Below are positions 1 to 64,000 of a stretch of DNA of 64,000 nt, piece after piece. The notes below the pieces were generated by a model. That model saw only the letters and a list, made by a program, of their open reading frames with translations, did not search any database and was not told the DNA's origin. The stretch's first letter is position 1. Each line of letters starts with the position of its first letter. The stretch comes from Pedosphaera sp. GTDB lineage: Bacteria > Verrucomicrobiota > Verrucomicrobiia > Limisphaerales > SIBH01. Position numbers and translations under genes: made by a program. The stretch spans positions 1 through 64,000 of the forward strand of contig JANOQV010000159.1 of assembly GCA_031414955.1 (NCBI GenBank), read 5' to 3'.

Positions 1-1663
1 CACCGTGGATGAAGACAACGGCACCAGCGACCCGGCCAACGGCACCGGCACCAGTCTGCGCGAGGCGCTGAAGTATGCGCAAAACCTGGGCGGCGCACGG
101 ACCATCACCTTCGCGCCGGGGCTGGCCGGGCAGACGGTCACGCTCACCGCGGGCTGGGGCGGCAGCGGCGACGCCACCGCACTGGCGGTTTCCACGGCGG
201 TGACGATTCAGGGCCTCGCCACTGCCCCCGGCGTCACGCTCGCCATGGGCGCGGGCGTCACGCGGCGGCATTTTTACGTCGCGTATGGCGGTGCGCTGAC
301 TTTGCAAAATCTCACGCTTACCGGCGGCAACCCCATTGACGGTGGTGGCTCTGACGGCAACGGCGGCTCCATCGAGAGTGATGGTGACCTCGATGTGGCC
401 GGCTGCACATTTACTGGGAACATTGCTAAACGGGGCGGCGCGCTTTTCCTCTCTAGCCCGTTAGTTTTTTACTCGACGCCGCTGACGCGGGTCGCGAACT
501 CGACCTTCACGGGGAATACCACGCGTAGTGACGGCGGTGCGATTTATACCAGTCGCGCCGTGATGGCACTGACGAATGTGACCATCGCCGACAACAACTC
601 ACTGTTGAATAACGCCTTCTTACGAGGCGGCGGCATTTACCAGGAGAACAACGAAACGCAGATGGTGAACTGCATCATCGCCCGCAACACCCCCGACGAC
701 TTTGTGTCCTTTGTGTCGCAAGTGGTGGACAGTTTCAACAATCTCATCGGCGTCCCCGCCGCGAGCCTGGGTCTCGGCGCGCTCGCGGATAACGGCGGGC
801 CGACGCGAACGATGGCCTTGCAGCCCAACAGCCCGGCGCTCAATGCCGGCGCGACGGTCCCCGGCCTCACCACCGACCAGCGCGGCCAGGGGCGACCGCA
901 GTTCGGCGCGGCGGACATCGGCGCGTATGAATTGAACGCCTTCGATACCGGCCAGGCCACGCTCTCCGTCGGCGGGGCGTATTGGTATCTCGGCACGCCC
1001 GCCGTCGGCAGCGATTTGCGCGTCTATTACCTGCTGCCGGGCCAGCCCGAGGTGTGGGTGGACAACGGCTCGGGCGTGCGCCTCGGCCAGGCGCTCGACG
1101 GCACCGTGCTCGTGGAAAATTCCAACGGCGAAGTCTATGCCCGCACCGGATCGACCAACGGCCCCGGCACCGCCTGGCCCCGGCTCACCTCCGTCGTCGC
1201 GGGTGACGGCGCGACGTGGTTCCTCGGTCCCGATGCCAACGGCAGCGACTTCCACATTTACCGCTGGGCCGCCGGCGGTGCGCCGATCTACAGCGACGGC
1301 TACGCGACGAACCTCACCGTGCGGATGGACGGCTCCATCAATGCGCGCAACAACGTGGGCAACCTCTATCACCGCGTCGGCTCCGAAGCGGGCCTCGGCT
1401 CCCACTGGGAACTGCTCCTCCCCAGCACGCCCGCGTTGACCAGCCCGGTGCGGCTGGGCAGCGGCGCGTTCCAGTTCAGCTTCACCAACCAAAGCGACGC
1501 GCCCTTCACCGCCCACGCCACGACGAACATCGCGCTGCCCCTCGCGCAGTGGTCGAACCTCGGCCCGGTCGTGGAGACGCCGCCCGGCTCCGGCCGCTAC
1601 CAGTTCACCGACCCGCAGGCGACGAACAGCGCGCTGCGCTTCTACCGCGTGACCTCGCCGTGA
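1..1663 (+). CDS. 5'-partial secreted protein: SLREA motif, beta-helix (Pmp-like GGAI) repeats, choice-of-anchor Q domain, tectonin-like repeats and C-terminal RFYR domain
   Basis: ORF 5..1663 with frame open to the window edge; motifs GTSLREAL, GGAIY/FTGN, GGPTRTMALQPNSPALNAG..DQRG..R..ADIGAYE; ends LRFYRVTSP. Confidence 0.75.
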   Translation, partial: TVDEDNGTSDPANGTGTSLREALKYAQNLGGARTITFAPGLAGQTVTLTAGWGGSGDATALAVSTAVTIQGLATAPGVTLAMGAGVTRRHFYVAYGGALTLQNLTLTGGNPIDGGGSDGNGGSIESDGDLDVAGCTFTGNIAKRGGALFLSSPLVFYSTPLTRVANSTFTGNTTRSDGGAIYTSRAVMALTNVTIADNNSLLNNAFLRGGGIYQENNETQMVNCIIARNTPDDFVSFVSQVVDSFNNLIGVPAASLGLGALADNGGPTRTMALQPNSPALNAGATVPGLTTDQRGQGRPQFGAADIGAYELNAFDTGQATLSVGGAYWYLGTPAVGSDLRVYYLLPGQPEVWVDNGSGVRLGQALDGTVLVENSNGEVYARTGSTNGPGTAWPRLTSVVAGDGATWFLGPDANGSDFHIYRWAAGGAPIYSDGYATNLTVRMDGSINARNNVGNLYHRVGSEAGLGSHWELLLPSTPALTSPVRLGSGAFQFSFTNQSDAPFTAHATTNIALPLAQWSNLGPVVETPPGSGRYQFTDPQATNSALRFYRVTSP

Positions 1664-44614: not shown

Positions 44615-46172
44615 CAACGGTTCAGGGAACCAGCGCACGCGCCGGCTCGGCCTCATCGCCGGCGCGGCGGTGCTGGCGGTGCTCGCCGCCGGGATTGGCA
44701 TCCGAAAGTGGGCCGCGCCCAAGGGCGAGGAGCGCCAGTTCTTCAAGGTCAAGCGCGGCGACATGCTCATCTCCATCGTCGAGGGCGGCGCGCTGCGCGC
44801 GGTCCGGGAGTCGATCATCCGCAGCGAGTTCGAGGGCATTTCGCGCATCATCAGCATCGTGCCCGAAGGCACGTACGCGAAGGAGGGGCAGTTGCTGGTC
44901 GAACTCGATTCGTCCGAGCTGAAGGACCGCGTGAACCTCCAGGAGGTCACCTACCAGAACAACGACTTCGCGTTCATCCAGGCCAAGGAGAACCTCAGCA
45001 TCCAGCGCAGCCTGGTCGAGAGCCAGATCAAGGAGGCCGAGCTGCGCGTCGAGTTCGCCCGCTCCGACTTCGAGAAATACATCGAGGGCGACGCGCCGCA
45101 GCAGATCAACACCGCCACCAACGCCATCATCATCCGCAAGGAGCAGCTCCAGCGCGCCAAGGACAAGCTCGACTGGACGCAGCAGCTCTTCAAAAAGGGC
45201 TACGCCTCGAAGTCCGAGCAGGAGGCGGACGGCCTAAGCGCGACGCAGGCGAAGATTGCCGTCGATCAGGCTGAGGAGGATTTGCGGCTCTTCCACAAAT
45301 ACGACATGCCCAAGAGCAAGCGCCGGCTGGAGTCCTCGCTGGACCAGTCGAAGCTCGAACTCCAGCGCCTGCGCCAGCGCACCTCGAACCAGGTCGCGCA
45401 GGCCGAGGCCAACCTTCGCACCAGCCAGCGCGCGCTCGAGTTGACGCTTGATAAGCTCAAGGAGCTCAAGCAGCAGTTGGAGAACTCGAAGATCAAGGCT
45501 CCGCAGGACGGCCTGGTCGTTTATGCGTCGAGCAGTTTCGGCGACCGCGGCCAGATGCTCATCGAGGAGGGCGCGCAGATTCGCCAGCGGCAGGAAATCA
45601 TCAAGCTGCCCGACGTGTCGCAGATGATTGTTGAAATCCGCGTCCACGAATCGCATGTGCTGCAAATTCATCCCGGCCAGGAAGCCTTCGTGACCATCGA
45701 CTCCATGCCCGACCGGCGCTTCAAGTCCAAGGTCACCAAGGTCGCCGTGCTGCCGAATTCGCAGGACCGCTGGATGAACCCGAACCTCAAGGTCTATTCC
45801 ACCGACGTGCTCATCGAGGAGCAGTTGCCGGACTTGAAGCCGGGCGCGTCGGCGCGCGCGGAAATCACCATCACAAACCTCGTCAACGCGCTCACCGTGC
45901 CGCTGCAATCAGTCACCACGGTCAAGGGCCGCCAGGTCTGCTACGTGCAAAGCGGCGGCGACCTCACGCCCGTGCCTGTCACGGTCGGGAACTTTAACGA
46001 CCAGTTCATCGAAATCCGCTCCGGCCTCAACGAGGGCGATCAGGTCGCGCTCACACCGCCGGCACCTGGCGGCGATGACACCGGCTCCGCCAGCCCGGCG
46101 GTTTCGGCCGTGGAGACACGTCCCAAGTCCGCCGCCGCCGAGAAACCCGGCCCCAGCCCGAAGCGCCTATGA
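44601..46172 (+). CDS. membrane fusion protein (MacA/HlyD-like) 1
   Basis: VPEG..KEGQLLVELDS, IKAPQDGLVVY, LKPGASA, SGLNEGD.V. Confidence 0.9.
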   Translation: MTKSNNGSGNQRTRRLGLIAGAAVLAVLAAGIGIRKWAAPKGEERQFFKVKRGDMLISIVEGGALRAVRESIIRSEFEGISRIISIVPEGTYAKEGQLLVELDSSELKDRVNLQEVTYQNNDFAFIQAKENLSIQRSLVESQIKEAELRVEFARSDFEKYIEGDAPQQINTATNAIIIRKEQLQRAKDKLDWTQQLFKKGYASKSEQEADGLSATQAKIAVDQAEEDLRLFHKYDMPKSKRRLESSLDQSKLELQRLRQRTSNQVAQAEANLRTSQRALELTLDKLKELKQQLENSKIKAPQDGLVVYASSSFGDRGQMLIEEGAQIRQRQEIIKLPDVSQMIVEIRVHESHVLQIHPGQEAFVTIDSMPDRRFKSKVTKVAVLPNSQDRWMNPNLKVYSTDVLIEEQLPDLKPGASARAEITITNLVNALTVPLQSVTTVKGRQVCYVQSGGDLTPVPVTVGNFNDQFIEIRSGLNEGDQVALTPPAPGGDDTGSASPAVSAVETRPKSAAAEKPGPSPKRL

Positions 46173-48235
46173 ACCCGCGCCGCCCGCGCCACCGGGGATC
46201 AGGATGGAAGTGGGCCGCGCTCGCCGTGGTCCTGCTGGCCGGATTCTTCCTCGCGCGCGGCTCGTTCCGACGGCTGCACAAGACCTTTCCGTCCAACGCA
46301 TTTTACCAGGTCAAGCGCGCGGACATGCTTATTTCCATCACCGAGGAAGGGGCGTTGCGTGCGTTGAACGAGACGGTGATTCGCAGCGGTCTCGACGGCT
46401 ACAACCGCATCATCCAACTGGCGCCCGAAGGCTCATACGTGCAGAAGGGCGACCTGCTGGTCGAGCTCGACAGTTCCGGCGTGAAGGAGAAGTTGAACGA
46501 GCAGGAGTTGCTCCAGCAACAGTCGCTCTTCTTCGTGCAGCAGGCGCAGGGCAACGTGGCCATCCAGAAGCTGATGGCCGAAAGCCAGATCAAGGACGCA
46601 GAGGTGGCGGTCGAGGACGCCTTGTCGGACTTGGAAAAATACCGCGACGGGGACGCGCCGCTGCTGATCAAGACCATCGAGGCCCGCAGCGCCGTGCTGG
46701 CCGAGCAGGTGCGCATCGCCGGCGAGCGTTCCGTGCGCACCGAGCAGTTGTTCAAGTCCGGCAACGCCACGCGCTCCGACCTTGAGGCCGACGCCCTGAG
46801 CCTGAAGCGCGAGCAACTGGGCATCGCGCAGTATCAGGAGGATTTGCGCCTGATCAAAAAATACGACCGCCCGAATCAGATCCGCCTGCTGCAATCGAAG
46901 GTCGAGCAGGCGCGCGCCGAACTGGTCCGCATCAAGCAGCGGACCTCGAACGAGATTGCCCAGGCCGAGGCGGACTTGAAGACGAGCCAGGGCGCGCTCG
47001 ATTTCGTCGAGGAGGGGTTGGAGCAGCAACAGCGGCGGCTCGCGAACACGAAAATCTTTGCGCCGCAGAATGGCCTCGTGGTCTATGCGTCGGTCAGTCC
47101 CTTTCAGTCCGGCGGCGGCGACGACGAACGGCGGCGCATGGAGGGACGGTCCCGCTCCGGGGGCGGGCGCAGCGGCGGCGGGGAATTTCGCGGCGGCGGC
47201 GGGCGCGGCAGTCGCGGCAGCTCCGACGGCGGCTCGGGTAATTCATCGGGGAACAGTTCGCGCGGCGGCTCTTCCACTTCCGCCGCGGATGCCATCGCAA
47301 CGGGAAACCAGCGCATCGCCAACGCGCAAAGCGGATCAGTGGCCGCGGAGGGTGCCGGTGCCGCCGTGGCGGGTGGCGGCGGACGCTCAGGTGGCGATGC
47401 GAGCGGCGGCGGCTCGGGAGGTCAGGGCGTGAGCAGTGCGGCTTCAGCGTTTGTCTCCTACCCGACGTTGCGGCCGAGTTCCCGCTTCGGCGCGGCCACG
47501 GCGACCAACTCCTCTCCGGCCAGCACGGCGGGTGCGGCGGATTCCACGACCGCCGCCGCCAGCAGCAGCACACCGACCACGGCGAACCAGTTTGGATCTC
47601 GCTCCAGCAGTTCCCGCAATTCTGACTGGAGCGACCTGCCGTTCACGCCCGGGATGCTGGAGGAAGGCATCATGGTCCGCCAGCGCCAGGAACTCATCCG
47701 CCTGCCCGACGTGTCCAAGATGCTCGCGGAAGTCAAAATCGAGGAGGCGCGCATCAGCCAGGTGCGCGCGGGCATGACGGCCTACCTCGCGGTGCAGAAC
47801 CTTCCGGGCCGCCGCTTCCAGGGCACGGTGCGGCATGTGGGCCTGCTGCCGGACGCGCAATCAAGCTGGCTGAACCCGGACAAGAAGCTCTTTGCCACGG
47901 ACGTGCTGGTGGACGAGCAACTGCCCATCCTCAAACCCGGCGTGACCGCGAACATCGAAATCGTCATCACCAACCTGACCAAAGTCCTGAGTGTGCCGAT
48001 CCAGACCGTGGCGCGGCAGAACGGCCAGCGCGTCTGCCTGGTGAAGCGCGGCGCGCGCGTCACACCTGTGCCCGTCACCACCGGCTGGTTCAACGACATC
48101 TTCATCGAGATCACTTCCGGATTGAAGGAAGGCGACCTCGTGCTGCTGGCGCCCGACACGGACGAAGAGGACGAGGAAGGCGCGTCGAACAAGGTCAATG
48201 CGGCGGCGAGTCAGCCACGTCGTGAACAAAACTGA
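46169..48235 (+). CDS. membrane fusion protein 2 with long Gly/Ser-rich insertion
   Basis: Paralogue of MFP1; low-complexity insert between VVYAS and EEG..VRQRQE. Confidence 0.88.
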   Translation: MNPRRPRHRGSGWKWAALAVVLLAGFFLARGSFRRLHKTFPSNAFYQVKRADMLISITEEGALRALNETVIRSGLDGYNRIIQLAPEGSYVQKGDLLVELDSSGVKEKLNEQELLQQQSLFFVQQAQGNVAIQKLMAESQIKDAEVAVEDALSDLEKYRDGDAPLLIKTIEARSAVLAEQVRIAGERSVRTEQLFKSGNATRSDLEADALSLKREQLGIAQYQEDLRLIKKYDRPNQIRLLQSKVEQARAELVRIKQRTSNEIAQAEADLKTSQGALDFVEEGLEQQQRRLANTKIFAPQNGLVVYASVSPFQSGGGDDERRRMEGRSRSGGGRSGGGEFRGGGGRGSRGSSDGGSGNSSGNSSRGGSSTSAADAIATGNQRIANAQSGSVAAEGAGAAVAGGGGRSGGDASGGGSGGQGVSSAASAFVSYPTLRPSSRFGAATATNSSPASTAGAADSTTAAASSSTPTTANQFGSRSSSSRNSDWSDLPFTPGMLEEGIMVRQRQELIRLPDVSKMLAEVKIEEARISQVRAGMTAYLAVQNLPGRRFQGTVRHVGLLPDAQSSWLNPDKKLFATDVLVDEQLPILKPGVTANIEIVITNLTKVLSVPIQTVARQNGQRVCLVKRGARVTPVPVTTGWFNDIFIEITSGLKEGDLVLLAPDTDEEDEEGASNKVNAAASQPRREQN

Positions 48236-48248
48236 ATCTCAGGCCCGC

Positions 48249-50312
48249 ATGAAACCCGCCGCCATCATCCGCATCACCGGTGTCGAGAAGACCTACGACA
48301 TGGGCGAAGTCCAGGTGCGCGCGTTGAGCGGCGTGAACCTCGAAATTCTTGAAGGCGATTACGTCGCCATCATGGGGCCGTCCGGTTCCGGCAAATCCAC
48401 GCTGCTCAATTTGCTCGGCTGCCTCGACCGGCCCACCGCCGGCACCTACCACCTCGGCGAGGACGACGTTTCGCAGATGAGCGATGACGAACTTTCCGAG
48501 GTGCGCGGGCGCAAGATCGGTTTCATTTTCCAGAGCTACAATCTCATCCACCAGCTCTCGGTGATTGAGAATATCCAGATGCCGCTGTTCTACCAGGGCC
48601 TCGACACGCCGGGGAACAACCAGCGCTGCGAACAGTTCGCCGGCCTCGTCGGGCTGGCGGACCGGCTCGACCACCGGCCGAACCAGCTTTCCGGCGGCCA
48701 GCAGCAACGCGTGGCCGTGGCCCGCTCGCTGGTCAACGACCCGCTGATGATTCTGGCCGACGAGCCGACCGGCAACCTCGACTCCAAGACCGGCCAGGAA
48801 ATCCTCGACCTGATGGACCGCCTCAACCAGGGCGGCAAGACCATCATCCTCGTCACGCACGATCCGAACACCGCCGCGCGGGCCCGCCGCGTCGTCCACA
48901 TGAAGGACGGCCTGGTGGATCGCATCGTCACCAACGAGCGCCGCGCCGTCACCGCGACGAACGTGCCCGCCACCGCGCTGGACGAGTCCGGTGCGAACGG
49001 CCAGTCGCAGTCTCTCACGCGCCGGTTCATGCGCCCGTTGCGCACGATGCAAATCGGGACCAAGAGCCTGCTCCTGCACAAACTGCGCTCGGTGCTCACC
49101 ATGCTCGGCATCATCTTCGGCGTCTGCTCCGTCATCGCCATGCTCGCCATTGGCGAGGGTGCGTCCTATGAGGCGCAGGAGAAGATCAAGAAGATGGGCA
49201 GCGCGAACATCATCGTGCGCGCGGTCAAGCCGCCCGAGGATTCCCAGGCCGGCACGTCGTCTTCGGGGCGCGGCTCGGTCATCGAGTACGGTCTCACCTA
49301 CAAGGACGCCAGCCGCATTGAGGCCACCATTCCCGGCATCCGGCATGTGCTGCCCATGCGGTTGATTCGCGAGAACGTCCGCTTCTTCCGCAACGAGGTC
49401 GCCGGCCAGATTGTCGGCACGCAGCCGCTTTACCACGACATCGCCGGGCTCGACACCCTGCGGGGGCGGTTCATCACCGAGATCGACGACCTGCACCAGA
49501 ACAACACCTGCGCCATCTCCGAGGGGCTGGCCCGGCGGCTCTTTCCTTACCAGGACCCGCTCGACCAGGAGGTGAAGATCGGCGCGCACTACTATCAGGT
49601 CGTCGGGCTGGTGCGCGAAACGAGCACCGAGCAGAAGCGTCCGCAGTCCGGCGACGTCACCGGCCAGCCGCTCGACAACAACGTGTACATCCCGCTCTCC
49701 GCCGCGCGCAGCCGTTTCGGCGAGACGCTCGTCCGCCGTTCCGCCGGCAGCCAGGAACAGGAGCGCGTGCAGTTGCACCAGATCACCATCCAGTTCGCCG
49801 ACACGTCCGGCGTGGAGACGGCCGTGCCGCAAATCGAAGCGCTGCTCAAACGCTTCCACGCCAAACGCGACTACGAACTGATCGTCCCGCTGCAATTGCT
49901 GCGGCAGGCCGAAGAGACCAAGCGCATCTTCAACATCGTGCTCGGCTCGATCGCGGCCATCTCGCTGCTCGTCGGCGGCATCGGCATCATGAACATCATG
50001 CTTGCGACCGTGACCGAGCGGACGAGAGAGATCGGTGTGCGCCGCGCCCTCGGGGCTAAGCAGCGCGACATCACCTCGCAGTTCCTGATCGAGGCAATGG
50101 TGCTGGCCATCGGCGGCGGTTTGATTGGCGTGGCCCTCGGGGTGTTGACGCCGTTGATTGTCTCGCAACTGGCCAACATGCGGACCATCGTCACGCCGCT
50201 CTCCGTGCTGCTGGCCTTCAGCACCTCGGGCGCGGTCGGCATCATCTTCGGCTGGTACCCCGCCTCGCGCGCCGCGAAGCTCGATCCCATCGAGGCGCTG
50301 CGGCACGAGTGA
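48249..50312 (+). CDS. MacB-type fused ABC ATPase-permease
   Basis: GPSGSGKST, LSGGQQQR, LADEPTGNLD, GGIGIMNIMLATVTERTREIGVRRALGA, LDPIEALRHE. Confidence 0.93.
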   Translation: MKPAAIIRITGVEKTYDMGEVQVRALSGVNLEILEGDYVAIMGPSGSGKSTLLNLLGCLDRPTAGTYHLGEDDVSQMSDDELSEVRGRKIGFIFQSYNLIHQLSVIENIQMPLFYQGLDTPGNNQRCEQFAGLVGLADRLDHRPNQLSGGQQQRVAVARSLVNDPLMILADEPTGNLDSKTGQEILDLMDRLNQGGKTIILVTHDPNTAARARRVVHMKDGLVDRIVTNERRAVTATNVPATALDESGANGQSQSLTRRFMRPLRTMQIGTKSLLLHKLRSVLTMLGIIFGVCSVIAMLAIGEGASYEAQEKIKKMGSANIIVRAVKPPEDSQAGTSSSGRGSVIEYGLTYKDASRIEATIPGIRHVLPMRLIRENVRFFRNEVAGQIVGTQPLYHDIAGLDTLRGRFITEIDDLHQNNTCAISEGLARRLFPYQDPLDQEVKIGAHYYQVVGLVRETSTEQKRPQSGDVTGQPLDNNVYIPLSAARSRFGETLVRRSAGSQEQERVQLHQITIQFADTSGVETAVPQIEALLKRFHAKRDYELIVPLQLLRQAEETKRIFNIVLGSIAAISLLVGGIGIMNIMLATVTERTREIGVRRALGAKQRDITSQFLIEAMVLAIGGGLIGVALGVLTPLIVSQLANMRTIVTPLSVLLAFSTSGAVGIIFGWYPASRAAKLDPIEALRHE

Positions 50313-57307: not shown

Positions 57308-57994
57308 TCAATCAGCCAGGCGAATGACCAATCCTTTATCCGGGTAATCCACCGGGAAAGTGAACAGGATGTGAGCGCGTTGCTGCTCAAGTAACAGCTC
57401 GATCGCTTGCTGAACTTCGAAACCGCTGACGTCATCAACGAAAAGCCAGCGTGGGCTTGCTGTGAGAGCCAGTTGCAGATCCTCCCAGGCGTTGCGCAGA
57501 TCGTGCGCAGCGTCCACTACCACGAAATCGGCTGGTTCGATGGCTGTCAGGGTACGCAAGTCGCCCTGGGACAGGCGCCAATTATGGAATCCACGATCCG
57601 CGAAAAGCGCCTCGCAGACTCTTCGAGGATTCCATTCCCCGCTCCCGCCAGGAAGCGGGGAAATGCCAAACAAGTCATAACCAATGTAATGGGCATGGTC
57701 GTGTCTCCCGGCCAGTCCACGAGTGGCCGAGATATACGCATCCGCCGAACTGCCGGCGTGGGTTCCGAGTTCGACGATGACTTGTGGGCTGATCGTCCGG
57801 GCGACAGCCCACATGGAGCGATACTTCCGTTCAAATCCCCCTCGTCGAGCCAGATAATATCCGGCGTCATATTGCGTGAACACCGAGTAAAGCGGATGCG
57901 GCGCCCAATCGCAGGAATTGAAATGATCCGCAAAGCGGCGGGCAAATTCCGCCGATTGAGCCTCGTGTCCTGGCATAACAAACATGTTATTCAT
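57308..57994 (-). CDS. class I SAM-dependent methyltransferase (Methyltransf_24-like)
   Basis: IVELGTHAGSS, IGYDLF, VVVDAAH....EDL, LFVDD. Confidence 0.75.
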   Translation of the reverse strand: MNNMFVMPGHEAQSAEFARRFADHFNSCDWAPHPLYSVFTQYDAGYYLARRGGFERKYRSMWAVARTISPQVIVELGTHAGSSADAYISATRGLAGRHDHAHYIGYDLFGISPLPGGSGEWNPRRVCEALFADRGFHNWRLSQGDLRTLTAIEPADFVVVDAAHDLRNAWEDLQLALTASPRWLFVDDVSGFEVQQAIELLLEQQRAHILFTFPVDYPDKGLVIRLAD

Positions 57995-58011
57995 CTTCTG
58001 CTGGCGTTGAA

Positions 58012-59244
58012 TCAGCTCGGGATGCAGACGCCTGTTTCCTGATTGTACAACTTCAGTTCGATCGGCATCCGCTCATAGACATTCCAGCGCCCGCGCCACA
58101 CCCCGTCTCGATCCCGCCGCAGCGAACAGGTGAGACCTTCCAGCGACCACAATTGCAGAACGGTCTGCCCGTCTTCTTCCGCCAGTTCCCAAAAGCGCTC
58201 CAATTCGCCGCTGCCACTTCCGACCATCCCCTGCTCCAGCAGCGTGATGCTGCGCCGGTCATGGCCCACGCGGTGATAGTCAAATGTTTTGCCGGTCAGA
58301 AATTCCATCACGGCTCGGGCCTCAGGGGTGAGTTCCTTGGCTGCCTCCTCATAAATTCGTCCATTCCACCGGTTGCGCAGTTGCTGGATGAACTCCCGGC
58401 ATTCGCCCTCGAACTGAAATCCCTCGATGCACTTGTTCTCCGATCCCAGGCTCCATTTGTCCATATTGCGGTGCTGGAACAGCCGGTGGCCTTGAAAATC
58501 ATGCTGGCACATCGTGTCCTCCAATGCGTCGATGCCCCGCTTGGGCATGGCGTAGAGGCGCTTCAACTTCCGAAAGGCCAGATGGAAGGTCTCCTTGTCC
58601 CCGTGAATATGCTCATAGAAGAAATCTGAATACTCATTGTACCAACTGCACAGCGACATCGGCTCCCAGCACCGCTCCTTGTCGATGACCATCTGACCGC
58701 TCTCGAACTCCGGCTCGTCCTGGTGCTCCACGCCGCAGAGCCCCCAGATCATTCGGTCTGGCTCCAGGCGGCTGAAGTCCGGCCAGAAGATGGCGCCCGT
58801 GGCCAGGTACTCCGCCGTTTCAAACAGGAATTCCGGGTTCACCACCGGCACGTTGTCGGCATCCAGCAGCAACACCTCCTGAAACGGGCAATTGAGAATC
58901 GCATACGGTTTCAATTCCCAGCCGTTCAAAATGCGCGCCGGCCGCATCTGCCGCACTTTGGTCCCATCCACGCATTGGACGTTGAAAGGCCGGACCAGCG
59001 CCCGCATCCGGTCATCCAGTTCCCGCCCCCCGAGATGCCAGATTTGGATTGGCAGGTAGCAGCCCAGCTTGCGCAGCATGTTGATGCAGACCCAGGCGTT
59101 GGTGAAGTATTTCACCCCGCCCCCGCAAATTACGATGCCGCGACCATAAAACTGTCCCGGATAGGGCAGCGTTTGCCGAATGAAAGCGTTTGCAGCTTCG
59201 AGAGCATTTTGCTCGGTGATTCGTTCTGGATAGGCTTGGTTCAT
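58012..59244 (-). CDS. GT71 / MNN1-MNN2-like alpha-mannosyltransferase
   Basis: GRGIVICGG, LRKLGC.LPIQIW, K.YAIL...F.EVLLLDADN, TGAIFWPD, ESGQMVIDK, GDKETF.LA. Confidence 0.85.
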   Translation of the reverse strand: MNQAYPERITEQNALEAANAFIRQTLPYPGQFYGRGIVICGGGVKYFTNAWVCINMLRKLGCYLPIQIWHLGGRELDDRMRALVRPFNVQCVDGTKVRQMRPARILNGWELKPYAILNCPFQEVLLLDADNVPVVNPEFLFETAEYLATGAIFWPDFSRLEPDRMIWGLCGVEHQDEPEFESGQMVIDKERCWEPMSLCSWYNEYSDFFYEHIHGDKETFHLAFRKLKRLYAMPKRGIDALEDTMCQHDFQGHRLFQHRNMDKWSLGSENKCIEGFQFEGECREFIQQLRNRWNGRIYEEAAKELTPEARAVMEFLTGKTFDYHRVGHDRRSITLLEQGMVGSGSGELERFWELAEEDGQTVLQLWSLEGLTCSLRRDRDGVWRGRWNVYERMPIELKLYNQETGVCIPS

Positions 59245-59264
59245 CGTTCTTCTCCCATGTTTTT

Positions 59265-60344
59265 TCAATCCGTTTGCGTGGCGATCCGCTCTTCCGTGCT
59301 CTCCCGGCCCGCGCTTGGCACGGCTTGCCATGCTCCTTGCTTTTGCTGCCGGTGCAATGCCGCGCGCACCGCCCGCCACTGGAACGGAGCCAAGTAATCA
59401 ATCACACCACCGTTGAAGTACAACTCAATCCGCCGGATGACCTCCGCTGCCGTAATCATGTGCTGGCAGCGCGGGAGCGTGCCCACCACATCGACGCACA
59501 GGTTCTCCGGCTTGTCCTTCTCATCACCATCACCCAACGGGACCACGCGGGATTTCCAGCAACCGCCGTTGTCGCAGCAGAGCAGCGCGCCGTTGGTGTG
59601 AATGAATTGATGATGCGGGTAGGCTTCCCACTGCATCGGCTCGCGCCCGCCGGCCACCACCACGCAGGGCCGGTTCTTGGGTTTGCCACCCTTCACCTCG
59701 ACCGCCGCCGCAAGGTGCATGGCGAAGGTCACCGGGCAAAGCACGCCTTGCGCGTGATACATGAGCCGCACGAACTGCCGGAGATCCGTCTTCCCGCGCA
59801 AATCGATCACGCCGTTCAGCGCCGGATGGTGATGGCCGAGTTCCCCCACCTGCACGAATTGGATGCGCCCGCGAAAATGATGCACCACCTGCTGGTACCG
59901 GGCCGGCTCCCACCACTTGGCCGTGAAATCGCGCTTGCCGCCCGCGTTCACGATCCAGAACGGAATGTCCTCGCCCACGAGTTCGTGAACCTGCGACATC
60001 CAGGATTTCTCCACATCCGAAATGTGAACATCCCCCTTGAAGGCGGTCGGCTCGATGAACACGCCCAGCTTCTCGCTGAGAAAACGCGTGAAGGCGTGGA
60101 TGAAATGATACGCGCGCTGATTGCTGTGGTGGATGAGCGGATACTCGCACTGCATGACCTCCACGTCCGGCATGTTTTCCTCCAGCGGCGTGAGGTGCGG
60201 ATTGTTCTCCCACAAGCCAGGGCACGGCGTCCGCACATCTGTGACAAACTGGCCGGGACAGCAGGCGTGCAAATCCCGCACCGCCGCCGTGAGCATCACG
60301 ATGTCGCCTGGGGACTGATGGTTGCGAAGGATAAGTTTGCGCAT
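59265..60344 (-). CDS. GT9-like (heptosyltransferase-like) glycosyltransferase with Cys-rich C-terminus
   Basis: PGDIVM.T...DL, KWW, IDLRGKTDLRQ, MHLAAA, PCVVVAGG; CCDNGGCW..C..RC..IT. Confidence 0.8.
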   Translation of the reverse strand: MRKLILRNHQSPGDIVMLTAAVRDLHACCPGQFVTDVRTPCPGLWENNPHLTPLEENMPDVEVMQCEYPLIHHSNQRAYHFIHAFTRFLSEKLGVFIEPTAFKGDVHISDVEKSWMSQVHELVGEDIPFWIVNAGGKRDFTAKWWEPARYQQVVHHFRGRIQFVQVGELGHHHPALNGVIDLRGKTDLRQFVRLMYHAQGVLCPVTFAMHLAAAVEVKGGKPKNRPCVVVAGGREPMQWEAYPHHQFIHTNGALLCCDNGGCWKSRVVPLGDGDEKDKPENLCVDVVGTLPRCQHMITAAEVIRRIELYFNGGVIDYLAPFQWRAVRAALHRQQKQGAWQAVPSAGRESTEERIATQTD

Positions 60345-60372
60345 GAGCTTCAACGAGGCCTCAAATCGCTTC

Positions 60373-60834
60373 CTACTCGAACCCTTGGACCTCTACGCGG
60401 ATGACTTTTTGGTTCTCGAGGTGGAAATTCCAAACCGCTGCGCGAGCACGTCCGTCGTCGATTTTGTAGCCCAGGCGGTTCGGATTTGGATTCCTGCGAG
60501 CCGAACGTTCGGTAGGGGGACCGAGGAGATGTACCAACTCGTTCGAGCTTGTTCCAATTGGATTCCATTCGGCAAGCAGGGCATGCATGCGCCCCATGCT
60601 TTCCATAAATTGCTCCGCAGAAATTCCGAAATGGATTTGGCCGTGCTTGCTCCGCAAATCGGCGATTGTTTTCGAAATCCCTGTGGAGTTCGTCTTTTCC
60701 AACAGCTCGTTCTTGGTGGACCTCTGGTTCGTATCAGGCGGGCGCGCGCCGCTACAGCCAGCAGCGACAGCGCCTGCCGTCAGGATGATAGCCAAAAACC
60801 GTAGTGGGTGCCGCAGCTTGCCTATCAGATTCAT
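60373..60834 (-). CDS. lipoprotein, tandem paralogue 2 (immunity/inhibitor-like)
   Basis: Lipobox AAGC; IG.S..EL..LLGPP; near-identical to 60852-61310. Confidence 0.75.
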   Translation of the reverse strand: MNLIGKLRHPLRFLAIILTAGAVAAGCSGARPPDTNQRSTKNELLEKTNSTGISKTIADLRSKHGQIHFGISAEQFMESMGRMHALLAEWNPIGTSSNELVHLLGPPTERSARRNPNPNRLGYKIDDGRARAAVWNFHLENQKVIRVEVQGFE

Positions 60835-60851
60835 GGCAGGTTCAGAACATC

Positions 60852-61310
60852 CTAGTCGATAGCTTTGACTTCCATGCGCACGACTTTTTGATTCTCAAGG
60901 TCGAAAAACCAAACCGCGCCTGCGAGCCCGGTGTCGATTCTGTATCCAAGGCGATTAGGGTTGGGATTCCTGCGAGCCGAACGTTCGGTAGGGGGACCGA
61001 GGAGATGTACCAACTCGTTCGAGCTTGTTCCAATTGGATTCCATTCGGCAAGCAGGGCATGCATGCGCCCCATGCTCTCCCGAAACTTTTCCGCGGAAAT
61101 TCCGAAATAAATTTGTCCGTGCATATTCCGCAAATCGGCGATGGCTTTCGAAATCCCTGTCGAGTTCGTCTTTTCGAGCATCTCGTTCTTGGCGGATCTC
61201 TGGTTCGCGCCAGGCGGGCGCGCGCCGCTACAGCCAGCAGCGACAGCGCCTGCCGCTAGGATGATTGCCAAAAACCATAGTGGGTGCCGCAGTTTTCCAA
61301 CCTTCTTCAT
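60852..61310 (-). CDS. lipoprotein, tandem paralogue 1 (immunity/inhibitor-like)
   Basis: Lipobox AAGC; ATGA overlap with the upstream Ser-rich gene. Confidence 0.75.
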   Translation of the reverse strand: MKKVGKLRHPLWFLAIILAAGAVAAGCSGARPPGANQRSAKNEMLEKTNSTGISKAIADLRNMHGQIYFGISAEKFRESMGRMHALLAEWNPIGTSSNELVHLLGPPTERSARRNPNPNRLGYRIDTGLAGAVWFFDLENQKVVRMEVKAID

Positions 61311-63682
61311 GGCAGGTTCAGAACATTTGTTCGCATTGTGAACGTATCCTCCTCTCCAGGGTCGGAGTTAGGGAAAGGCCCGATGCGCTTCGTGGCCCCA
61401 ACAGTGTTCGTATCGCTAGTAGGAAAGCGGAAGAGTGCTTCGATTGGTTCGCCGGGGCGGTGAGTGATATTCAACAAAATGTGCATGAATTCATGTGCGA
61501 ATGTAAAAGGCTTCTTGGCCGCATCGCTCAAGGCTGCGATCACGATGAAATTCTTGCCGTTCGGAACCTCATGCGGCGGGACATTCAAGAATGCGGGGTA
61601 CGCAATAGCCACGCCCGTAAGTACAGGTGGCGGCGGTCCTGCGAACGGGGTGATGTAGAAAACGTCCACGGTATTCGCATTGCCGCTTTTCATACTGATC
61701 AATTTCAACTCGTCCTCGTTCCATGGCGATGCAGGACCCTCTTTTCCCCACCGGAATCCATCAAGCAGCACACTCGGGAGTGGAAACCCGATTCCATTGT
61801 TCATTTGAATGGTCACGTTCAAGCGAAAGGTCGATTGAGCGAACCGCTGGTTGGCGATGTCCACATCTTGTTGGACGCTCGCTTCGGTGACCGAGGGCTC
61901 CTTGGTCGAGTAGGTAATATCCGCACCACTGGCATGAGCGGCGGCAGTGCTCCCATCCACCCCTCGTGTGCATCCAGTGAGCACCACACCTGACGCCGAT
62001 ACGCCTGTGTATTGGATGAATTCGCTGCCGATCTTTACCCATCCAGACGGTTGTGGATTTCCTGAAACCCAGACCCCATTGATGGTGGTGTCAGTCGAGC
62101 TTAGTGCGGTGACTAGCACGCCATCCGGCCGGGGTTTGGCGAAGACCTTAGCCACCGCTGCGAGGAAACGGATTTCATGTTTCAACTGGTTTGGTCCGTT
62201 ATCGGGGGTCGAGTCGTGCAGACGCCCAACCGTAGTGGTAATTTTATCTTCGCAAATGCCCGGGTTGTTGGAGTAAAGAATTTGCACAGCGTCGCTGAGT
62301 TTGCACAGGAGCGTCTGGTTTCCTTGGACGCCGTCGTCCACCGAATCGCTTACCAATCTCAGGAACTGACCGCGAAATATGTGTCCTGTCGGAGAGTTCT
62401 TTTTGTCCAGGACGAAGGTATATTCCGTCTCGTTGATCGTAAGAATGACCGAGACGCTGGTTTTGTCACCCTGAGTATCGTCTTCGACTTCCAGGCGGAA
62501 GTTACTGGGATCATCGCAAGTATCGGAGAAATTGACGAACCCCGGCAACCCTTCATTCGTGATGTAATTGCTCACATGAAGCGCCTCCTTTTCGAGATCG
62601 ATTGCCGTGTTATCGTTCTTCAGAATTCTTAAGGTCGCTAAGCAGGATGGCGGGCTATTTCCGCCAGAACTAGAACTCGCTTTGCTCATGCTCGATAAGC
62701 TCGAAGAACTGTCAGGCGGCAAACCTGACTGACTGCTCGAACTTGAACTGGACGAGCTTTTTGAACTGGATCTGGATGAACTGCTCGATTTTGACGAACT
62801 GGAACTCGAAGACTGTGAGGACGAGCTTTGCGAAGAGGAGTTAACCGAACTGGATGACTGCAAGGATGGCGATTGGCTGCTCGAACAGCTCTGCGACGAG
62901 GATGACAGGCTGCTGGAACTTTGGTTTGAACTGCTCTGCGAGGATGAAGACTGACTGCTTGAACTCTGCGAATTCGATGACTGTGAAGAGGAACTTGGGG
63001 ACGATGAACTAACCGAACTGGAGGAATGCGAGAATGACGATTGGCTGCTTGAACTCTGTGAAGTGGACGGCTGTGAGGACGAGCTTTGGGAGCAGGAGCT
63101 ACTGCTCGGCGAGGACGACGACATGCCGCTCGAACTCAAGCTGGAGGAGCTGGGCGAGGCGGAGGACTCGCTGCTCAGACTCGACGAACTAGTATCGGAT
63201 GATGAGCTGGTGTCGGATGAAGAACTCAAGCTGGAGGAACTCCGCGAACTCCGCGAACTCCGGGAACTGCGTGAACTCTTGGAACTCGAGGATGCCGAAG
63301 GCGAGGACGAGCTTTGCGAACTGGATAGGCTGCTCAATGAAGATGAACTGATCGAACTCGCGGAACTGGGAGAACTGCTGCTCGGTGAGGCGCTGCTCAC
63401 CGAGGATGATGATGCCGAAGACTCAGATGAAGAACTCGAGAGCAAGGAGGAACTGGTGGATGACCCACTGCTCTCCGAACTGCTTGGACCCGAACTGCTG
63501 GATGAAGGGGGCGGCACGTCACTGCTGGAGGACGATGACGGCGGCGGGGGCACATCGCTGCTCGAAGATGAGGAGGGCGGCGGTGGTGGTGGCGGCGTGC
63601 TGCTGCTCGATGAAGGTGGCGGCGGTGTGCTGGACGATGAAGATTCAACGATGATGGGTGAACTGGAGCTGGAGTCAGGCAT
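61307..63682 (-). CDS. serine-rich stalk protein with C-terminal HExxH (zincin-like) domain
   Basis: About 340 N-terminal residues are mostly Ser, with Pro/Gln; globular C-half with TFAHEFMHILL; no signal peptide evident. Confidence 0.75.
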   Translation of the reverse strand: MPDSSSSSPIIVESSSSSTPPPPSSSSSTPPPPPPPSSSSSSDVPPPPSSSSSSDVPPPSSSSSGPSSSESSGSSTSSSLLSSSSSESSASSSSVSSASPSSSSPSSASSISSSSLSSLSSSQSSSSPSASSSSKSSRSSRSSRSSRSSSSLSSSSDTSSSSDTSSSSLSSESSASPSSSSLSSSGMSSSSPSSSSCSQSSSSQPSTSQSSSSQSSFSHSSSSVSSSSPSSSSQSSNSQSSSSQSSSSQSSSNQSSSSLSSSSQSCSSSQSPSLQSSSSVNSSSQSSSSQSSSSSSSKSSSSSRSSSKSSSSSSSSSQSGLPPDSSSSLSSMSKASSSSGGNSPPSCLATLRILKNDNTAIDLEKEALHVSNYITNEGLPGFVNFSDTCDDPSNFRLEVEDDTQGDKTSVSVILTINETEYTFVLDKKNSPTGHIFRGQFLRLVSDSVDDGVQGNQTLLCKLSDAVQILYSNNPGICEDKITTTVGRLHDSTPDNGPNQLKHEIRFLAAVAKVFAKPRPDGVLVTALSSTDTTINGVWVSGNPQPSGWVKIGSEFIQYTGVSASGVVLTGCTRGVDGSTAAAHASGADITYSTKEPSVTEASVQQDVDIANQRFAQSTFRLNVTIQMNNGIGFPLPSVLLDGFRWGKEGPASPWNEDELKLISMKSGNANTVDVFYITPFAGPPPPVLTGVAIAYPAFLNVPPHEVPNGKNFIVIAALSDAAKKPFTFAHEFMHILLNITHRPGEPIEALFRFPTSDTNTVGATKRIGPFPNSDPGEEDTFTMRTNVLNLP

Positions 63683-63754
63683 AACAGGTTGAGGTCGATG
63701 AATTCATCCAGCGGGATTTTGCGGTGGCGACAGCAGTGATGGCTTTTGCAGTAA

Positions 63755-64000
63755 TCAGCCTTTGAACTTGCTGTTGGCGGGCAGCTTGAATTCTACGCGC
63801 ACGGCGGCATTAGCCGGGTTTCCGTGCGGCCACTCGGCATCGGCGGCGAGTTGAATGGCAATCCGAGTGTCGGTGATGGCTTTGACCATCGTTTTCAAGG
63901 TGCTGCGTCCACCAGTCGCGCCGCTCTGCGCGCCGCTCTGGGTTTCTTCCACTCCGGTATAGGCCGTGAGCGCCTCGCTGGCGGTGTTGAGTTTGTCCGG
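63755..64000 (-). CDS. 3' part of a hypothetical protein (extends beyond the window)
   Basis: Frame open from the window edge to the stop at 63755; ends ADAEWPHGNPANAAVRVEFKLPANSKFKG. Confidence 0.6.
   Translation of the reverse strand, partial: PDKLNTASEALTAYTGVEETQSGAQSGATGGRSTLKTMVKAITDTRIAIQLAADAEWPHGNPANAAVRVEFKLPANSKFKG

Follow-up and report, generated by a model that had tools for sequence, protein, structure and literature searches.

A Serine-Tagged Metzincin Cassette with a GT9-Type Glycosyltransferase in Pedosphaera sp.: a Probable Glycosylated Polymorphic Toxin System

Polymorphic toxin systems of the RHS type combine a variable C-terminal toxin domain with a small cognate gene downstream and tandem immunity copies, and serine-rich repeat adhesin systems comprise a signal peptide, a wall anchor, GtfA/GtfB, and SecA2/SecY2. 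GT9 is mainly a family of lipopolysaccharide (LPS) heptosyltransferases. KLIKK peptidase/potempin pairs of Tannerella forsythia consist of a pappalysin-like peptidase and a small lipoprotein (available part of PMC9890683), and among the bacterial autotransporter heptosyltransferase (BAHT) systems (TibC/AAH with TibA/AIDA-I; PDB 4RAP and 4RB4), whose enzymes are dodecamers that transfer heptose to Ser, TibC has the catalytic residue Asp110 and an iron finger of Cys339/342/358/370 (available part of PMC4358343). Here we describe a seven-gene cassette on contig JANOQV010000159.1 of Pedosphaera sp. (genome of 6.5 Mb), encoding a Ser-rich protease-like cargo, two lipoproteins, two glycosyltransferases (GTs; one GT9 and one GT71 type), a methyltransferase, and an upstream helical protein. 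"The window" denotes the whole stretch analyzed, positions 1-64,000 of this contig.

The locus is probably a swappable polymorphic toxin-immunity cassette, in which a modular Ser tag on a cargo devoid of a signal peptide receives an O-glycan, likely heptose. In the proposed mechanism, GT9 would act in the cytoplasm and attach the first sugar to Ser runs in both the cargo and the upstream protein. GT71 would extend the glycan and the methyltransferase would cap it, the cargo would exit by a signal-peptide-independent route, and the two lipoproteins would shield the owner's envelope from the cargo metzincin. A literature search, with most subscription journals and supplements outside its coverage, found no description of such a toxin cassette.

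Organization of the cassette and its serine tag

Six minus-strand open reading frames (ORFs) of the window, headed by the cargo gene (791 amino acids [aa], 63682-61307), follow one another with gaps of -4, 17, 28, 23, and 17 bp (Table 1), in agreement with the earlier note, which had reported six same-strand genes spaced by -4 to 28 bp. Inspection beyond position 64000, as that note had proposed, revealed a seventh co-oriented gene that it had missed; this gene (245 aa, genome contig 64492-63755) heads the operon 72 bp upstream of the cargo gene and opens with a Ser run. The six genes are thus real, but the set as such is not a conserved unit, and the conserved core is GT9 plus the Ser tag. 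The cassette is flanked by a thioredoxin-like gene (tlpA, a label assigned in this analysis) and pgi, and its GC content is 51-61%, against about 63% across most of the window. Pfam scans matched the GT9 gene to PF01075 (23.1 bits; cut-off, 22), the GT71-type gene to PF11051 (126 bits), the 228-aa protein to Methyltransf_24 (22.4 bits, under the cut-off of 26.3), and the HExxH region of the cargo solely to M78, below the cut-off; nothing above cut-off was obtained in an NCBIfam scan of the cassette proteins. A promoter scan upstream of the operon, which was uninformative, gave 0 sigma-70-like sites.

Ser accounts for 228 of the first 345 residues of the cargo, and this tract is the sole six-frame segment of the genome that exceeds 21 Ser in 40 (tract maximum, 33). 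Its codons are mixed (TCG, 46; TCC, 45; AGC, 45; AGT, 42; TCA, 35; TCT, 15), as noted before. The earlier proposal of selection rather than slippage needs qualification, because a few short, diverged tandem duplications (77-87% matches) occur inside the tract and imply that slippage contributed to its growth. No hydrophobic N-terminal stretch was found in the 791-aa protein, which bears out the earlier claim that a signal peptide is missing. We take the Ser-tract frame as the real one because it runs on into a conserved domain and is found again in congeners. A plus-strand acidic ORF (63063-63692) was rejected as a gene, being the antisense of the tract.

Several relatives carry tracts of 150-350 residues, and others have short tags, either N-terminal runs of 4-6 Ser or internal Ser loops in RHS proteins. 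The long tracts, the 345-residue one here included, would suit a rigid, mucin-like glycosylated stalk for surface display of the protease, built by a fixed GT9-GT71-methyltransferase line, as would the frequent joining of GT9 with GT71 (adjacent or fused in 34 of 59 loci of the same order, mostly fused) and the methyltransferase fusions. We consider this explanation improbable, since no anchor or signal peptide is present, some relatives have just 4-6 Ser near the N terminus or have internal Ser loops instead, and the accessory enzymes vary by locus. The mucin-like spacer of the earlier note thus fails as a general role, although a stalk may be a secondary role of this particular copy.

The variation in accessory enzymes is considerable. 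GT71 was near only 9 of 90 loci in the first sample, and a GT9 that is 86% identical to that of the window is followed by other glycan enzymes. Across loci, the accessory set includes GT71, GT2, GT4, second GT9 domains, Methyltransf_24, and FkbM, often fused. Therefore, of the earlier grouping of GT9, GT71, and methyltransferase, the association stands, being fused or flanking in many relatives, but not the fixed set; GT71 and the methyltransferase are exchangeable extras. Whether they extend and cap the first sugar is evenly balanced. A small C-terminal domain of GT71 (window 58012-58330, minus strand) recurs, sometimes duplicated, on other cassette GTs (L014 and L228).

Table 1. Features of the cassette in the window (pLDDT, predicted local distance difference test; rmsd, root mean square deviation; SAM, S-adenosylmethionine)
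Feature	Position	Strand	Remarks
Upstream gene, 3' part (245 aa; extends to 64492 on the genome contig)	63755..64000	-	Helical, no Pfam family, N-terminal Ser run; cassette marker in relatives; atlas clusters of hypothetical proteins at 0.96-0.97
Ser tag of cargo, residues 1-345	62648..63682	-	66% Ser, encoded by all six Ser codons; signal peptide absent; predicted acceptor of glycosylation
Ig-like domain of cargo, residues about 346-486	62225..62647	-	Model pLDDT 94.6; VIA Z 10.6, rmsd 2.3, 103 aligned to S-layer domain 8c8k
Predicted pappalysin-like metzincin domain of cargo	61307..62224	-	HExxH, 6 residues, and His at 730-741; small inserted beta-domain at about 517-595
Lipoprotein 1 (152 aa), likely cognate inhibitor/immunity protein	60852..61310	-	Cys27 behind a hydrophobic leader
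Lipoprotein 2 (153 aa), tandem paralogue of lipoprotein 1	60373..60834	-	82% identity
GT9-fold glycosyltransferase (359 aa), core enzyme, predicted Ser O-heptosyltransferase	59265..60344	-	Invariant Asp14 and Cys256/262/283/293
PF11051 (GT71-type) glycosyltransferase (409 aa), exchangeable accessory, often fused to GT9	58012..59241	-	Pfam 126 bits
Methyltransf_24-like SAM-dependent methyltransferase (228 aa), accessory	57308..57994	-	Below Pfam cut-off; domain type fused to GT9 or GT71 in relatives

Seven kilobases from the cassette, the window also carries (46169-50312, plus strand) a gene with a long Gly/Ser-rich insert that we take from its sequence to be efflux-adaptor-like, followed by what is presumably a MacB-like ABC gene.

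The GT9 subfamily and its serine-rich neighbors

We surveyed the gene neighborhoods of GT9, as the earlier note had suggested. The first sample comprised the best 80 of 136 confirmed genome loci, with 10 kb around GT9, and was compared with 58 control regions that matched it in total length and came from five of the GT9-bearing genomes. A poly-Ser ORF was defined by at least 20 Ser in 30, and the six-frame scans were also evaluated with an AGY-codon filter against antisense acidic genes; a degenerate DNA pattern for Ser runs, tried on five genomes, was dropped because it was swamped by the antisense of acidic genes. Poly-Ser ORFs were found near GT9 in 26 of the 80 loci versus 1 of the 58 controls (24/80 versus 0/58 with the AGY filter), in none of 197 own-genome tiles, and at 1 of 10 viral GT9 loci. 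RHS proteins made up 13 of the 28 poly-Ser ORFs scanned. Besides, RHS genes occurred at 22/80 loci and HldE-like genes at 23/80 (query locus included), both versus 0/58 controls; HldE- and GmhA-like genes of the own genome lie elsewhere.

The second sample consisted of the 59 own-order loci, picked for contig room or kinship from the 146 matches listed. Their plan is an extracytoplasmic function (ECF) sigma factor, a tiny peptide, GT9-GT71, and a Ser/Thr kinase-WD40 gene. By criteria fixed after the data had been viewed, a small Ser/Pro-rich ORF (SP-peptide) lay directly upstream of GT9 in 26 of 54 loci (5 of the 59 being dropped for want of upstream DNA) versus 48 of 1307 control genes, and the motif [FY]SP[KRQS]P was present in 21/54 versus 3/1307. 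In a quick tree of 101 rows (loci of at least 12 kb with near-full matches, four duplicates dropped and the window included), 35 rows were poly-Ser, 29 were SP-peptide, and 37 were neither, and the window GT9 fell among poly-Ser Verrucomicrobia. Six of the 37 have RHS neighbors in which 2-3 stretches of 6-12 Ser occupy corresponding internal positions (0/58 controls), and one further row has a doubtful Ser run. In all, a Ser-rich partner (poly-Ser, RHS toxin, or SP-peptide) is present in 70 of the 101 long loci. The survey thus ties this GT9 subfamily strongly to Ser-rich neighbors; we give counts and no P values because kin are not independent.

The Ser/Thr kinase-WD40 gene, which flanks GT9 in 34/59 own-order loci, would fit tracts that are phosphorylation sites or low-complexity linkers, with GT9 acting on another protein. 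As neither the window cassette nor any of the inspected cassettes with poly-Ser cargo contains a kinase, we regard this as very unlikely.

The structural model of GT9, built from 89 sequences, has a GT9 fold (pLDDT, 92). It matches TibC (4rap_B, VIA) with Z 20.1, rmsd 2.8, and 260 aligned residues at 16% identity, the model range 1..316 aligning to TibC 96..391. Gly13-Asp14 is invariant in the 89 sequences, Cys256, 262, 283, and 293 are invariant in the subfamily (pattern in 75/89), and Asp14 and the four Cys fall where the aligned ranges, read from their ends rather than residue by residue, put Asp110 and the iron finger of TibC. The beta-barrel of TibC is absent, since the GT9 protein begins at the catalytic domain. 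No TibC chain was among the PDB sequence matches of GT9 at E 10 or better, and sequence searches of the PDB, phages (no match), and plasmids (one weak GT9) returned no characterized relative. The nearest named relatives are Pedosphaera and Limisphaerales metagenome-assembled genomes; the subfamily was found in 4/401 genomes across the phylum, in 106/401 across the order, and also in Planctomycetes and 10 viral contigs, as a subfamily of bacteria of the Planctomycetes-Verrucomicrobia-Chlamydiae (PVC) group. We consider it quite likely that GT9 glycosylates Ser, and somewhat likely that its sugar is heptose, taken from ADP-heptose.

Further Ser-rich genes were observed near GT9. In the ECF class (L191-L208, L211, L214, and L216), a 45- to 100-aa peptide with [FY]SP[KRQS]P and SPSP repeats (e.g., in L198, 165 bp upstream of GT9) stands in an operon with the ECF sigma gene, a GT9-GT71-GT fusion, and the Ser/Thr kinase-WD40 gene, and looks like a ribosomal glycopeptide or a glycosylated signaling peptide. 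L044, L049, and L219 encode, upstream of GT9, peptides of 42-75 aa whose leader is double-glycine-like and whose core is SP-rich. These peptides are candidate exported glycopeptides; the adjoining gene in L044 and L049 is one that we take to be HlyD-like. Planctomycete RHS proteins of L061, L078, L081, L082, L088, and L090 have two or three Ser runs at about 430, 650, and 1300 and adjoin GT9 fusions. Planctomycete GT9-HldE-RHS loci also contain Cys-rich ORFs of 125-160 aa with no Pfam family (L084:6893-7282, L053:5544-5984, and 8 others like them). A further helical family, which ends in a Gly/Ser tail (L022:245-1021, L029:6850-7614, and L034:6373-7314), lies upstream of a GT and GT9, with a transposase or other insertions between. 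Of the viral contigs, one carries a poly-Ser, Cys-rich protein directly before GT9 (L008:7725-9662), and in another, the GT9 ORF contains an intein/LAGLIDADG insertion and GT71 comes next (L010:8357-10633).

Cargo exchange, the metzincin, and its lipoproteins

The cargo of the cassette is exchanged among relatives. In the congeners G501 and G786, the upstream gene lies beside tlpA and is followed by a similar Ser/Pro leader on different cargo, an RHS protein in G501 and another unrelated domain in G786; both contigs end before the GT9 position. In G771, the upstream gene, GT9, and GT71 are 81, 63, and 56% identical, respectively, and the cargo is unrelated. Two loci have two cargo-partner pairs in tandem before GT9, with just 4-5 Ser near each cargo start. 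Small exported genes (Sel1, leucine-rich repeat, or lipoproteins) follow the RHS proteins or unrelated domains in the cargo slot.

An N-terminal run of at least 5 Ser was present in 8 of the 33 upstream-gene homologues scored, and all 7 scored followers of such homologues are Ser-rich cargo with no hydrophobic leader (10-residue hydropathy of 1.8 or less). The followers of Ser-less homologues reach a hydropathy of at least 2.6 in 6 of 10 scored, some of which may be unrelated genes, and GT9 was found in 0 of 9 extended loci of the Ser-less class, two of them under 5 kb. The own genome encodes an upstream-gene paralogue without a Ser run (L249, own contig C99:11019-11786), followed by a 1084-aa signal-peptide protein, which by its sequence appears to be the Sec-type counterpart of the cassette. 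An RHS gene of the same genome (C291:4170-8135, minus strand), 54% identical to the poly-Ser RHS of L020, starts with only a few Ser, lies on a contig that lacks GT9, and is a possible substrate in trans or a possible tag-less control. Small helical proteins with C-terminal Ser tails are likewise encoded in the own genome (L245:3883-4308 and L246:2669-3088, both minus strand); the gene in L245 precedes a GT1/GT4-like gene (Pfam E 6e-5) and is divergent from an RHS gene.

Structure prediction of the C-terminal half of the cargo, which the earlier note had described as an HExxH domain, gave an Ig-like domain and a predicted metzincin (pLDDT of the whole half, 94.6). The best metzincin matches (VIA) were ulilysin (2cki; Z 13.0, rmsd 2.7, 171 aligned), promirolysin (Z 12.5), and a snake-venom type (Z 12.2), and because these tie within 1, we accept the fold and leave the family open. 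M43 pappalysin-type peptidases have the zinc motif spacing HExxHxxGxxH, which was not found here; the motif of the cargo is HExxH, six residues, and a conserved His, without the Gly. H385, E386, H389, and H396 (query numbering) are conserved in at least 90% of 66 rows. The inserted beta-domain is also present in phage proteins (phrog_7578, E 6e-6), and Pfam toxin-peptidase models gave no match to the metzincin at E 1 or better. A full HMMER search retrieved 499 representatives of the metzincin module at E of 0.001 or less (a word-index search for longer C-half homologues gave 2), in which the module sits C-terminally on many unrelated extracellular scaffolds, including adhesin-like ones. In L250, a GT71 homologue (50% identity) on the minus strand is divergent from a metzincin homologue with the same insert.

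Of 24 metagenome loci of metzincin homologues that were fetched, 1 ended at the contig end and 23 were scored; a lipoprotein homologue, several with a clear lipobox, was directly downstream of the metzincin in 14 of the 23. The two lipoproteins of the cassette, correctly described before as paralogues, share 82% protein identity and 87% DNA identity. Complex prediction weakly supports a metzincin-lipoprotein pair, with a score of 0.36 versus 0.00 for the best control (runs agree in at least 58% of contacts; partner pLDDT, at least 61); the score mark is reached by 116 of 157 solved pairs and 2 of 215 mismatched pairs, with 18 of the solved pairs and both mismatches at 0.60 or less. An atlas search for the lipoprotein gave matches that were all under 0.9, with a weak BamE-like lead at 0.78. 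The proposed toxin-then-immunity order was upheld insofar as the lipoproteins are cognate partners, with the qualification that the pair also resides on proteins without poly-Ser. It is quite likely that both lipoproteins block the metzincin in the owner's envelope. We lean slightly toward an exported metzincin that cuts envelope proteins of neighboring cells, as opposed to a nontoxic secreted protease.

In the latter case, the cargo would not be an antibacterial toxin but a harmless protease, secreted or at the surface, whose lipoprotein inhibitor is protective, and the glycan would shield the tag from its own protease. The closest folds, ulilysin and mirolysin, the co-encoded lipoprotein inhibitors known for such peptidases (available part of PMC9890683), and the homologues on adhesin-like scaffolds all agree with this explanation. 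We nevertheless find it rather unlikely, since the same slot also holds RHS or unrelated domains, each with its own small exported gene, as in polymorphic toxins. The glycosylation step is common to this explanation and to a glycosylated toxin cassette.

Several observations weigh against a glycosylated toxin cassette. The best fold match of GT9 is an uncharacterized Veillonella GT9 (3tov; Z 23.9), WaaF (1psw; Z 20.8) ties with TibC and WaaC reaches Z 19, and the Cys spacing of GT9 differs from that of TibC. A long poly-Ser ORF was present in 4 of the 59 own-order loci, two of which repeat first-sample loci. As the SP-peptide class is largely one clade with an adjoining Ser/Thr kinase and its criteria were post hoc, the locus counts are inflated by kin. 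A Ser-rich partner is absent from 31 of the 101 long loci, kinase-linked copies among them, and an own-genome GT9 paralogue (contig C45, outside the tree) is also kinase-linked and without such a partner. No export gene recurs among the GT9-locus neighbors. The public gene call of the cargo (P0123) begins at residue 370 and so omits the Ser tag, for which reason the DNA of homologue loci was examined too; 1 of 91 metzincin homologue rows was Ser-rich, and a poly-Ser ORF or GT9 was found in 0 of the 23 homologue loci, so that the protease has no need of the tag. Together with the lipoprotein coupling in 14/23 loci, this indicates that the metzincin and lipoprotein are a likely protease-inhibitor module that entered this cassette and is swappable.

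Some of these points would also fit transferases that make a surface polysaccharide or modify LPS, in which case the toxins and Ser-rich genes would merely share mobile islands and the tracts would be unglycosylated linkers. GT9 is generally known as an LPS family, WaaF and WaaC match it at Z 19-21, HldE serves LPS too, and 31 of the 101 loci are partnerless. We judge this quite improbable, because at least four unrelated neighbor types (RHS, helical proteins, small peptides, and the metzincin) carry Ser tracts that the controls lack, the recurrent neighbors include no flippase, polymerase, or lipid A gene cluster, and the tag is confined to those upstream-gene homologues whose cassette holds Ser cargo.

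Export and comparison with described systems

TssC and VgrG-type genes of the type VI secretion system (T6SS) type are present in the own genome. Among 22 genomes that encode Ser cargo, several of which are incomplete, TssC turned up in 5, and a T6SS as the general exporter is thus unsupported. Family scans found no secretion module in the cargo. The glycan may serve for shielding, for receptor binding, or as an export signal. One speculative and unlikely possibility is that the glycosylated Ser tag itself is the export or targeting signal, replacing the Sec signal peptide of PVC polymorphic toxins: GT9 would heptosylate it, the sugar-tagged cargo and the tagged helical partner would exit via an undescribed glycan-reading pathway, and the same family would make ribosomal glycopeptides under ECF-sigma/kinase control.

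If the toxin cassette is as proposed, a protein O-glycosylation system would be widespread in Verrucomicrobia and Planctomycetes (106 of the 401 genomes searched in the order), and enzymes now annotated as LPS heptosyltransferases would belong to it. Protein heptosylation would reach beyond folded autotransporter repeats to a portable low-complexity tag, polymorphic toxins would be glycosylated by their own operon, and signal-less RHS and protease cargo would have an unexplained export route. Furthermore, a family of small SP-rich peptides would have been missed by gene callers, and glyco-engineering could make use of a 5-residue tag and its single-domain enzyme.

Compared with serine-rich repeat adhesins, the cassette shares a Ser-rich protein with co-encoded glycosyltransferases, whereas no signal peptide, wall anchor, dipeptide repeat, GT4 pair, or SecA2/SecY2 is present among the seven genes and the host is a Gram-negative PVC bacterium. 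With polymorphic toxins it shares the exchangeable C-terminal domain, the cognate gene downstream, the tandem immunity copies, and cargo swapped at one site; its N terminus, however, is a Ser tag in place of a Sec, PAAR, VgrG, or WXG100 region, and dedicated glycosyltransferases close the operon. The KLIKK/potempin pairs are linked to it by mirolysin, the second-best fold match of the cargo metzincin. They differ in that potempins are beta-barrels encoded upstream, whereas the lipoprotein is downstream here, and the available part of PMC9890683 describes no glycosylation module.

The BAHT systems are similar in the GT9-type, WaaC-like GT-B catalytic fold with an Asp at the start of helix 1, a possibly equivalent four-Cys insertion near the C terminus, the enzyme gene beside a Ser-containing substrate, and an ADP-heptose supply nearby (available part of PMC4358343). 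On the other hand, the N-terminal beta-barrel of TibC (1-97) is absent, identity is 16%, and the Cys spacing differs. The neighboring gene encodes a Ser-tagged Ig-metzincin without signal peptide or barrel in place of an autotransporter, and the predicted acceptors are disordered Ser runs on many unrelated signal-peptide-less proteins. The additional GTs and methyltransferases point to a glycan that is longer than that of BAHT and capped. By analogy, the cassette would work like the BAHT-autotransporter pairs but departs from them in barrel, sequence similarity, and substrate features.

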